Positions 39,831-41,356 of a DNA stretch of 64,000 bases are shown here, piece after piece; position 1 is the stretch's first letter; the number at the start of each line of letters is the position of its first letter. This DNA is from Planctomycetota bacterium (GTDB taxonomy: Bacteria; Planctomycetota; JBFWNO01): assembly GCA_050251015.1 (NCBI GenBank), contig JBFWNO010000003.1, positions 1,411 to 65,410 on the forward strand, read 5' to 3'. Both the position numbers and the translations under genes were made by a program. The notes below the pieces were generated by a model. The model was given only the letters and a program-made list of their open reading frames with translations. It was not told where the DNA came from and did not search any database.

Positions 39831-40664
39831 ATGAGCGATGCTCAATACACCGGTTTGGTGGCTGAACTTCTGACCAAGGGCGACCCGAGAGAGTGGGAAG
39901 ATTGGCCGAACTACCTCGACATGGGCTTCACCCAGGAGCATGTCCCCGCCCTCATCGAGATGGCCACCGATGCCGACCTCAACTTCGCCCCCTCAGACTC
40001 CCTCAGGGTCTGGGCTCCCGTCCATGCCTGGAGGACCCTGACGCAGATGAAGGCCAAGGAGGCCATCAAGCCCCTTCTGTTGCTGTTTCATTTCATGCCC
40101 GACAACGAGTGGGTGGATGAACTGCATGAGTTCTACGATGCTATGGGCAGGGAGGCCATTGGCCCCTTCGATGAAGTATGGGACATGTACGGCCCCGAGT
40201 CCCAGATGCAAATCATCAGCTGCCTGCAAGTCATCATCGAAAACCACGATGATGCCCATGAGGAATGCCGATCCTTTGCCAGGGCGAGGCTAGCGCAACA
40301 TGCCGACAATGACCCAGGGATCAACGGGTGGCTGATCGCCATACTGATGAATCTTGACGACAAGACATCGATCGGACTGATCCGCGAGGCGTTCCGCGCC
40401 AGGGATGTGCTCCATGATGTGGCGGGCGATCTATTGACCATCGAAAAGGAACTCGGCGTGCCGCCCGATGAGAATTTCCCCTATCTCGACACCATGCCGG
40501 AGAGATCATCTTGGCTCGATGTGCCGGAGGAGGAAGATGACGAGGATGAGGAGGTGGAGGTTGAACCGGCTCGCCGTATGTCCGAGAAAATCGGCCGCAA
40601 CGACCCCTGCCCTTGTGGGAGCGGGAAGAAATACAAGAAGTGCTGTTTACTGAAGGTGCAATAA
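39831..40664 (+). CDS. SEC-C motif protein (moron, opposite strand to the phage late genes)
   Basis: Start at ATG 39831 preceded by GGAGG. Acidic tail ([13 protein letters not shown]), then the C-terminal [24 protein letters not shown] zinc motif. Helical repeat body. Confidence 0.7.
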
Positions 40665-41356
40665 TCAAACCTCCAAATAAAGTTCCTCAATTGGAACCAC
40701 ACTCCCTTCAGACGCTTTATAAATTTATCGTCAATGATTTCTGTGGATTGTGGGATTCAACAGCCTCTAATCCAAAAGCAACTGGTCGAGGAAATTTTAT
40801 TTTTGCCCTTCAATCCATGATTCTTCTAGAGTTGGCTGCCAAAGCCAGTAGCACCTCATCATTGCTCAAGAAAAAATTCAAAGAGGCCCTAATTGATCAA
40901 GAATCTCGCTTTTATCGAAAGCTTCCAAAGAAAATCAATAGTGGAGAGATGGGAAATTACCTACCATGTGAACAAGATGATTTTTTAGCGCTACTTTATG
41001 ACGTGACACGAAATGGAATCGCACACCAATACACTCAACTTTATGTTGAATTGAGCGATGGAGATTTTTATTTCATGTACACAGGGGCAGAGCCTAACAA
41101 TCTACTTGCAACTATTGCAGCGAATCCCAAGCCTGAAAATCACATGACATTGTTGCCAAAGGATAGACATGGAGGACATGGCTGCATCATCCATACTCCA
41201 TGGCTTTTCCTAGACATTAAAAACGCTACCGAGTCCGTTGACTTATTCAATAAATGTGGCCCGATACCTGTTCAGACTCGACAGCAAGGAATGGGTGGTC
41301 GCGAGTATCCTTTTAGCCTTGATGAACTTGTCATGAACTTTGGAAAAGAAATGTGA
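40613..41356 (+). CDS. hypothetical protein with HEPN-like RNxxAH motif (moron; start uncertain)
   Basis: AT-rich ORF. Contains [12 protein letters not shown] (Rx4H, as in HEPN/AbiD-type RNases). The track start is TTG 40613 inside the SEC-C gene; alternative starts at about 40640 (GTG) or 40690 (TTG). Confidence 0.5.

Follow-up and report, generated by a model that had tools for sequence, protein, structure and literature searches.

The window analysed here is a stretch of 64,000 nucleotides from a Planctomycetota bacterium (contig JBFWNO010000003.1 of assembly GCA_050251015.1, positions 1,411 to 65,410 of the forward strand). It lies on contig C3 of a metagenome-assembled genome (MAG) of 2.88 Mb in 190 contigs, whose closest relatives among the compared genomes are found at the phylum level at best, and it is matched by a Logan contig from run SRR27751816 with 100% identity across 5.4 kb. 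A lambda-like prophage in the window has its late genes arranged on the minus strand, and this array is broken by plus-strand open reading frames (ORFs) at 39831-40664 and 40613/40691-41356, designated below as gene 1 and gene 2. The first-pass annotation had singled them out as an opposite-strand pair, and the observation holds: the remaining large ORFs between ~27 and 52 kb are all on the minus strand. We interpret the two genes as separately acquired morons residing in a cargo slot of the integrated prophage, the second one probably coding for a stand-alone effector of HEPN type, and assign to this reading a probability of roughly 0.58. The features of the two genes, as derived from homologues, Pfam and HMMER searches, alignments and AlphaFold2 (AF2) models with their predicted local distance difference test scores (pLDDT), are the following.

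39831..40664, plus strand: gene 1, 277 aa, a DUF1186-family HEAT-like solenoid with an acidic linker and a SEC-C zinc knuckle (homologues, Pfam, AF2)
40494..40580, plus strand: acidic disordered linker of gene 1, residues 222-250 (pLDDT <50)
40596..40649, plus strand: SEC-C metal-binding motif of gene 1, residues 256-273 (Pfam PF02810, 8.8e-11)
40691..41356, plus strand: gene 2, 221 aa, TTG start; AT-rich gene whose family, unnamed, consists of solitary HEPN-like proteins (HMMER family, AF2)
40829..40843, plus strand: E47-x3-K51 in predicted helix 2 of gene 2, at the HEPN Ex3[KR] position (alignment and model)
41009..41032, plus strand: R107-N-G-I-A-H112-Q-Y114 of gene 2, candidate HEPN catalytic motif (alignment and model)

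The pair is framed by structural and packaging genes of the phage, which define the borders of the junction.

38086..39492, minus strand: portal gene of the lambda family, downstream border of the junction (Pfam Phage_portal_2, 3e-63)
39492..39695, minus strand: gpW-like gene, 67 aa (position and size only)
41374..41541, minus strand: zinc-ribbon gene, 55 aa, terminase-coupled, bordering the slot upstream (Pfam Zn_ribbon_NrdR, 1.3e-9)
41538..43994, minus strand: large terminase (terL) of gpA type (Pfam GpA_nuclease, 2e-22)

The name gpW-like, given at first pass, suits the position and the size of its ORF, whereas a family match is absent both in Pfam and in PHROGs; homologues of this ORF, 41-68% identical, lie just upstream of the portal gene in 68 related contigs (tblastn), and those of the zinc-ribbon gene come after terL in at least 14 related contigs. 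At the other end of the element, a large serine recombinase gene (52449-54098) adjoins tRNA-Asp (54041-54117), and host-type genes are situated beyond it, so that the whole element is taken as an integrated prophage. Probing IMG/VR with the portal returned at least 600 matching stretches, the best 80 of which, with portals 62-77% identical (loci L213-L292), were examined, and 68 contigs bearing terL, the gpW-like gene and a portal related to those of the window formed the set used for comparison of junctions. The distance from the end of terL to the start of the portal varies across these contigs from 353 nt, which is the empty state, to 4,901 nt, with 2,046 nt in the window. No homologue of gene 1 or gene 2 was found in any of the 68; filled slots contain varied ORFs on either strand, with GC content below that of the backbone in 13 of the 15 slots listed. 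One of these cargoes is a C5 DNA methyltransferase (L292 4100-5734), the one that could be named when four slot cargo proteins were compared with PDB sequences. Because related junctions are empty or otherwise filled and neither gene is present in them, both genes are regarded as cargo, and the moron status proposed at first pass gains support from this variability together with the 41% GC of gene 2. The interval of ~2 kb from the terminase and zinc-ribbon genes to the gpW-like and portal genes would thus represent a moron slot accommodating two unrelated genes oriented opposite to the late operon.

Gene 2 is the more informative of the two. Its GC content (41%) and its GC at third codon positions (GC3, 36%) fall far from the 59% GC of the genome and from the GC3 of 75-85% typical for adjacent phage genes, in agreement with the earlier remark on its marked AT-richness, and the low-GC block matches the extent of the ORF. 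The start codon is likely TTG at 40691, because the N-termini of homologues and the database gene call agree on it; it is situated 26 nt past the stop of gene 1, and a Shine-Dalgarno sequence is not evident. A search for repeats or target-site duplications flanking gene 2 or the pair gave nothing above chance level. Treating gene 2 as a pseudogene or a non-coding AT-rich insert was ruled out, since the ORF is intact and all invariant residues of the family are kept.

A word-indexed protein search with gene 2 returned only the protein itself, and it was the use of an exhaustive HMMER search that revealed its family: 245 representatives of clusters formed at 50% identity at E<=1e-3, and 130 at 1e-10, mostly 215-260 aa long and 28-40% identical. 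Neither gene 2 nor 71 family members match anything in Pfam, NCBIfam, PADLOC or PHROGs, and a sequence-profile search of PDB with gene 2 yielded chance matches only. In the alignment of these 71 sequences D16, W21, N35, E47, R107, G109, H112 and G132 are invariant, with R/K51, D104, Y114, H151 and D175 among the nearly invariant positions. Members were located in 14 species genomes, using for the scan a 28-sequence subset of the alignment, and belong to Acidobacteriota, Chloroflexota, a deltaproteobacterium, Binatia, Gottesmanbacteria, Nitrospirales, Actinomycetota and archaea of Nitrososphaerales/Conexivisphaerales; bacteria of the candidate phyla radiation (CPR) are among them. Among the archaeal carriers are MAG loci L024, L028, L031 and L033 (Nitrososphaerales, Conexivisphaerales), and in the last three of them the matches are split or partial, so degradation is possible. 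The longest of three long members read, P0207 (529 aa), has an N-terminal extension of ~290 aa with no match among PDB sequences; it may be a true fusion or a result of a mis-called start, as some N-terminal extensions may be.

The string TRNGIAHQ, on which the first-pass suggestion of a HEPN-like protein was based, is indeed present at residues 106-113 of gene 2 (nt 41006-41029) and belongs to the most conserved block of the family, [FWY]D[LVM][IVL]R[NH]GxAHQYQQI. A bare R-x4-H appears in 18% of shuffles of the gene 2 protein and R[NHD]xxxH in 2.5%, and the motif becomes meaningful solely through its form R[NH]GxxH, which 167 of the 168 full-length members retain. It makes up the invariant core of the 71-sequence alignment, R-[N/H]-G-x-A-H-x-Y, where R107, G109, H112 and E47 never vary, at least 90% of sequences retain Y114, and position 51 is occupied by R in at least 90% of the family and by K in the protein from the window. 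The AF2 model built with the alignment (pLDDT 93.8, predicted TM-score 0.89) comprises helices 6-25, 35-53, 57-75 and 98-110, a hairpin 118-130 and a helix 139-143, followed in the C-terminal part by a strand 163-167 and helices 169-182 and 210-218. In this predicted structure helix 98-110 has the motif at its C-terminus, a coil and the beta-hairpin 118-130 come next, E47 and K51 fall within helix 35-53, and an extra helix with a long loop comes ahead of helix 98-110. By definition, the HEPN motif stands at the end of helix 3 or the start of the following loop, and N, D or H usually comes after its R; many families bear a second acidic residue in helix 2 in the form of Ex3[KR], helices 2 and 3 are often separated by inserts, and in Csx1 a beta-hairpin directly follows the motif (PMC3710099). 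Judged by sequence and predicted secondary structure, the core of the gene 2 family fits this definition of the metal-independent RNase site: it has R-x4-6-H with a polar residue after R, a core helix ends in this motif, and helix 2 carries Ex3[KR]. The pattern R[NDH]xxxHxY is also the motif of HepT, as seen in 29 HepT sequences from related genomes, and in comparison of the gene 2 family with HepT by hhalign the best local alignment places motif on motif (P=0.015). The 'RHG' motif of histidine phosphatases was tried as another interpretation and ruled out, because the usual form among members is RNG and the topology is another.

Gene 1 is of quite another kind. Its ATG is preceded by GGAGG, and its C-terminus does carry, as first noted, a SEC-C motif after an acidic tail: the Pfam match amounts to 41.9 bits against a cut-off of 20.4, and the knuckle C-x-C-x-S-G-x-K-x-K-x-C-[CH] is found in it. 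Matches in PADLOC, PHROGs and NCBIfam are restricted to this tail, those in GenBank phages are motif-only, and a Pfam search with gene 1 alone gives no PF06685 (DUF1186) match. A word-indexed search revealed more than 4,400 full-length homologues with 35-44% identity; for many of them matches to PF06685, PBS-lyase-HEAT and SEC-C (PF02810) are recorded, some being placed on megabase contigs, and the full-length identity of gene 1 to proteins for which such PF06685 matches exist amounts to 40-46%. The AF2 model (pLDDT 86) consists of an all-alpha solenoid over residues 1-210, the disordered linker and the zinc knuckle, and Foldseek finds for it weak matches of HEAT/ARM/alphaRep type (E >=0.27). 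In our reading, gene 1 codes for a protein-binding adaptor with a HEAT-like body that comes from a large, mainly cellular family. The literature search found no paper mentioning DUF1186. As to the tail, SEC-C domains of SecA, YecA and YchJ bind zinc or iron, and that of SecA contacts SecB and ribosomes (bioRxiv 10.1101/613315). Three examined neighbourhoods of close gene 1 homologues turned out to be ordinary chromosomal ones with no neighbour in common and without gene 2, and in the tree gene 1 occupies a long branch within the cellular DUF1186/SEC-C clade. Since GC3 of gene 1 is 73% as against 36% for gene 2, and since gene 1 groups with cellular proteins whose settings are ordinary chromosomal, separate origins of the two genes are favoured, and gene 2 would be a recent AT-rich arrival.

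The same family was encountered at the same junction in another group of phages. In a distant lambda-like clade of ~34 IMG/VR contigs (loci L081-L158) an opposite-strand gene for a protein with DUF1186 and SEC-C, exemplified by L081 3941-4831, lies between terL of gpA type and the gpW-like and portal genes. Portals of this clade are 65-96% identical to its reference member (at least 80% for most) and only 24-31% identical to the portal of the window, and its junction proteins match PF06685 at 1e-21 to 1e-26. The junction gene is 38-95% identical among the contigs, while the neighbouring gpW and portal genes, mostly 80-97% identical, are far less variable; extra cargo, present in some cases in the gap to terL, includes DUF1989 (L117) and a lipid A acyltransferase (L118). 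In the tree the proteins of these phages constitute a clade of their own with 100/100 support, and gene 1 stays outside it, in the cellular clade. Because they occupy separate branches, the tree indicates that the DUF1186/SEC-C family entered the terL-gpW junction at least twice.

Whether the two plus-strand genes of the window act together was assessed from the contexts of gene 2 homologues, collected for 7 clusters by exact-protein look-ups, for 14 species genomes and for 53 metagenome contigs (42 of which entered the SEC-C count). The first-pass proposal of a two-gene module, with gene 1 as sensor or adaptor and gene 2 as HEPN effector, found no backing in these data: no recurrent partner emerges over 83 loci, where clustering of neighbouring ORFs yields as recurring clusters only shadow frames of gene 2 itself and one transposase limited to a related group (L012-L014, L162 and L164). 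No SEC-C motif was found in the 42 metagenome loci, 31 of them with at least 600 nt upstream, or in the 14 genome loci. The co-occurrence check advised at first pass thus ended with one of ~52 other informative loci having a SEC-C-tailed neighbour, and the body of this neighbour is unrelated to gene 1: in the groundwater loci L003-L005 a SEC-C-tailed protein of 258 aa ends 72 nt upstream of the gene 2 homologue, and by BLASTP and profile comparison the L003 protein has in common with gene 1 just a tail of 20-28 aa. Other neighbours are diverse, comprising insertion sequence (IS)/Y1 transposases, a group II intron reverse transcriptase, TrwC relaxase and integrase, as well as RES, HicB, PIN, HEPN_AbiU2 and Schlafen-AlbA_2 proteins and toxin-antitoxin genes. 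Housekeeping settings are also met, with a lone homologue between trpE and trpG and another one after ilvD. The former (L023 5001-5762, from a Dehalococcoidia MAG) has a GC content of 0.45 against 0.60 for its locus and sits alone between the genes for anthranilate synthase components I and II, a clean single-gene insertion in a biosynthetic operon. In L006/L007 (6001-8203) a small element with Rep, primase and helix-turn-helix genes contains a gene 2 homologue two genes upstream of HEPN_AbiU2, with a HAD hydrolase between them, and may be a defence islet. Because there is no recurrent partner, a SEC-C neighbour occurs in one locus group and neighbours vary, gene 2 is a solitary, horizontally mobile gene, and its pairing with gene 1 is not conserved.

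An obligate two-gene system, in which the SEC-C/HEAT protein senses or docks (on ribosomes, for example) or serves as antitoxin and thereby controls the HEPN-like effector, could draw on the common strand, the 26-nt spacing, the absence of an evident promoter or ribosome-binding site (RBS) of gene 2, and the independent SEC-C-tailed gene of L003-L005, whose occurrence by chance is estimated at ~3%. This proposal is nevertheless improbable in view of the tail-only likeness of the L003 protein to gene 1, the ~51 other informative loci devoid of the motif and of recurrent partners of any kind, the lack of gene 2 both in the three neighbourhoods of gene 1 homologues and in the second phage clade, and the sharply unlike GC3 values, which argue for separate acquisition. 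A broader version of it can be conceived, and we consider it just as doubtful: adaptors with a SEC-C tail would attach by the zinc knuckle to the ribosome or to a chaperone and recruit or gate the solitary HEPN-like RNase whose gene lies downstream, providing a translation-coupled switch of abortive infection; DUF1186/SEC-C genes at the terminase-gpW junction of two distant lineages would be the sensor half with a swappable effector, and the gene 2 family would be a beta-decorated, structurally new HEPN branch in bacteria and archaea.

Mobility of gene 2 invites one more explanation: the gene would be selfish and spread by itself, coding for a homing-type nuclease, for instance, or riding on a small mobile element as its cargo, and would bring no benefit to phage or host. 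Its family is solitary, occurs sporadically in phyla of both bacteria and archaea and frequently has a lower GC content than the flanks, and its insertions between trpE and trpG and after ilvD, or beside a Y1 transposase, a group II intron and a relaxase, would be in line with such behaviour. Gene 2 of the window, on the other hand, has neither flanking repeats nor target duplications, homing-nuclease motifs and family matches are absent from it, and the transposase neighbour is confined to the single related group mentioned above; the probability of a purely selfish gene is accordingly rated very low, below that of the obligate pair.

Several results weigh against the preferred reading of gene 2 as a stand-alone HEPN-type moron. 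With HepT, hhalign gives a probability of 2.9% and aligns nothing beyond the motif; none of the 71 members produces a Pfam HEPN match even at E<=1; Foldseek of the gene 2 model returns no significant match in PDB (best E 0.73, TM-score ~0.2) or BFVD; and between the motif and the long helix that comes next there are ~55 residues including three beta-strands, which is atypical for HEPN. A phage-related role also appears not to be typical of the family, because searches of GenBank phages, PLSDB plasmids and IMG/VR, at the sensitivity applied, revealed no member. SEC-C motifs mark ~0.15% of genes in the source genome (4 sites), from which the chance of meeting the single SEC-C neighbour was estimated at ~3%, so that it may reflect some link to SEC-C tails. 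Finally, no sigma-70-like promoter was detected by a consensus scan, the host phylum possibly using other signals, and terminator-like sites, all on the minus strand, are not commoner than in shuffles.

The first group of these results would also agree with the view that gene 2 is not a HEPN RNase at all and represents a new-fold protein, in which the conserved D, W, N, E, R, H and Y residues serve other chemistry or binding (in an anti-defence protein, hydrolase or regulator) and Rx4H is convergent. Besides the failure of 71 members to match HEPN families and of a model with pLDDT 94 to resemble PDB or BFVD structures, it relies on the mixed alpha/beta topology and on the nearly invariant D16, W21, N35, H151 and D175, which are outside the HEPN definition. 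Convergence would, however, have to account for the coincidence of four independent HEPN features, i.e., the motif, the polar residue after R, the helix end and Ex3[KR] in helix 2, with the HxY extension being that of HepT. Profile comparisons of the family with DUF4145 and Abi_2 likewise gave no significant result, and these negative profile comparisons are of little weight because the true HEPN families HepT, DUF4145 and Abi_2 fail to detect each other under the same procedure (P 0.09-0.5). A non-HEPN protein is considered unlikely, if more conceivable than the rival readings discussed above, and membership of gene 2 in the HEPN superfamily seems more probable than the contrary. The Foldseek check advised at first pass returned neither a HEPN structure nor any other for the gene 2 model, and the assignment of a HEPN fold is accordingly tentative.

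If gene 2 is a stand-alone HEPN-type effector, its mode of action may be pictured as follows. The protein would be made at a low level in the lysogen, from the TTG start with no evident RBS and probably on the transcript of gene 1; its RNase would stay latent until triggered by an infecting phage and would then cut tRNA, rRNA or mRNA, resulting in abortive infection or exclusion. We infer RNase activity, a defence role and expression in the lysogen on the model of HepS ('HEPN Solo'), a solitary abortive-infection anticodon nuclease of the Salmonella prophage Gifsy-1 (PMC13043305).

Two candidate control elements were noted at the slot.

39706..39742 and 51539..51575, no strand assigned: ~37-nt repeated element, candidate promoter/operator of two minus-strand operons (alignment)
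39780..39797, no strand assigned: perfect 18-bp palindrome GGGTCTACCGGTAGACCC, 33 nt upstream of the ATG of gene 1 (sequence reading)

Copies of the first element share the near-identical core GTTATTTGCCGCT[C/G]AGGGGGGTC[G/A]TTGC and are located just upstream of the gpW-like and portal genes in one case and of the early operon with the genes for a DUF3799 nuclease (50706-51509) and AAA_24 in the other, all on the minus strand, so that the element probably serves these two operons; their near-identical stretch of ~30-37 nt reads GTTATTTGCCGCTSAGGGGGGTCRTTGC. The palindrome is unique in the window and had 0 matches in 100 shuffles with 3 mismatches permitted; it could be an operator or a hairpin acting on minus-strand read-through. 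Unless it is halted and resumed at the 37-nt element, late transcription from terL would cross both cargo genes in the antisense direction, and such passage could silence the cargo during lytic growth. The terminase itself shows a peculiarity: its ORF of 818 aa matches only the nuclease domain of GpA in Pfam (residues 501-791), without a GpA_ATPase match, and differs from the terminases of the second IMG/VR clade, which have 664-679 aa, suggesting that its N-terminal part is divergent or extended.

The gene 2 family embraces at least 245 clusters, comes from uncultured bacteria and archaea, has no library model, and its confident structural model resembles no solved structure. To our knowledge, HepS is so far the only solitary HEPN effector that is understood. 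If gene 2 is a stand-alone HEPN RNase, its family would be a new, structurally divergent branch of solitary HEPN effectors, and immunity of this type would extend to uncultured lineages of soil and groundwater, archaea included. The terminase-gpW junction, in its turn, acts as a hotspot for cargo across a large group of lambda-like phages and has repeatedly been taken by the DUF1186/SEC-C family, and this recurrence offers a concrete setting for finding the function of a widespread family. Adjacency and a common strand within a prophage slot provide no evidence for a two-gene system. Two oddities remain: a SEC-C-tailed neighbour turned up in one further case, and the junction captured DUF1186/SEC-C genes more than once.

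Among known systems, the slot resembles moron hotspots of lambdoid phages in being a fixed late-gene junction that is empty in some relatives and harbours varied genes of lower GC in others; it differs in that no promoter or terminator of its own is recognised at the junction of the window, and in that DUF1186/SEC-C genes came to the junction in two distant lineages via different branches of the tree. Gene 1 is akin to the DUF1186 and SEC-C proteins, being 40-46% identical to members with PF06685 and PF02810, and its tail is a canonical SEC-C motif like those of SecA, YecA and YchJ, although a phage location is unusual for its clade. A precedent for a single-gene anti-phage protein with a SEC-C motif and an otherwise novel fold is Rugutis, a system of 359 aa from Lactococcus plasmids (PMC11381338), but its motif is N-terminal, whereas that of gene 1 is C-terminal after a HEAT-like body, and this architecture, with PADLOC matches of gene 1 confined to the motif, sets the two apart.

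For gene 2, HepT/DUF86 toxins of HEPN-MNT pairs (PF01934; PMC7641770) show the identical motif R-[N/D/H]-x3-H-x-Y; the gene 2 family, in contrast, has no PF01934 match and no MNT partner in annotated neighbourhoods, and the protein is twice the size of HepT and unalignable with it outside the motif. Csx1/Csm6 HEPN domains are similar in the beta-hairpin directly succeeding the Rx4-6H motif as well as in the strongly distorted core (PMC3710099 and the gene 2 model), but gene 2 has no CARF domain or CRISPR context, and Foldseek matched it to none of their many solved structures. HepS comes nearest in organization, as a small solitary R-x4-H protein carried as accessory cargo by a lambdoid prophage without a partner gene. 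No likeness of sequence or fold to gene 2 was detected, and Foldseek of PDB gave no HEPN entry; gene 2 is larger, has beta-strand inserts and lies at the terL/gpW junction, and its activity, trigger and oligomeric state are presumed. With these differences in mind, HepS is adopted as the working model for gene 2, according to which a latent oligomer would be triggered by a protein of the incoming phage.

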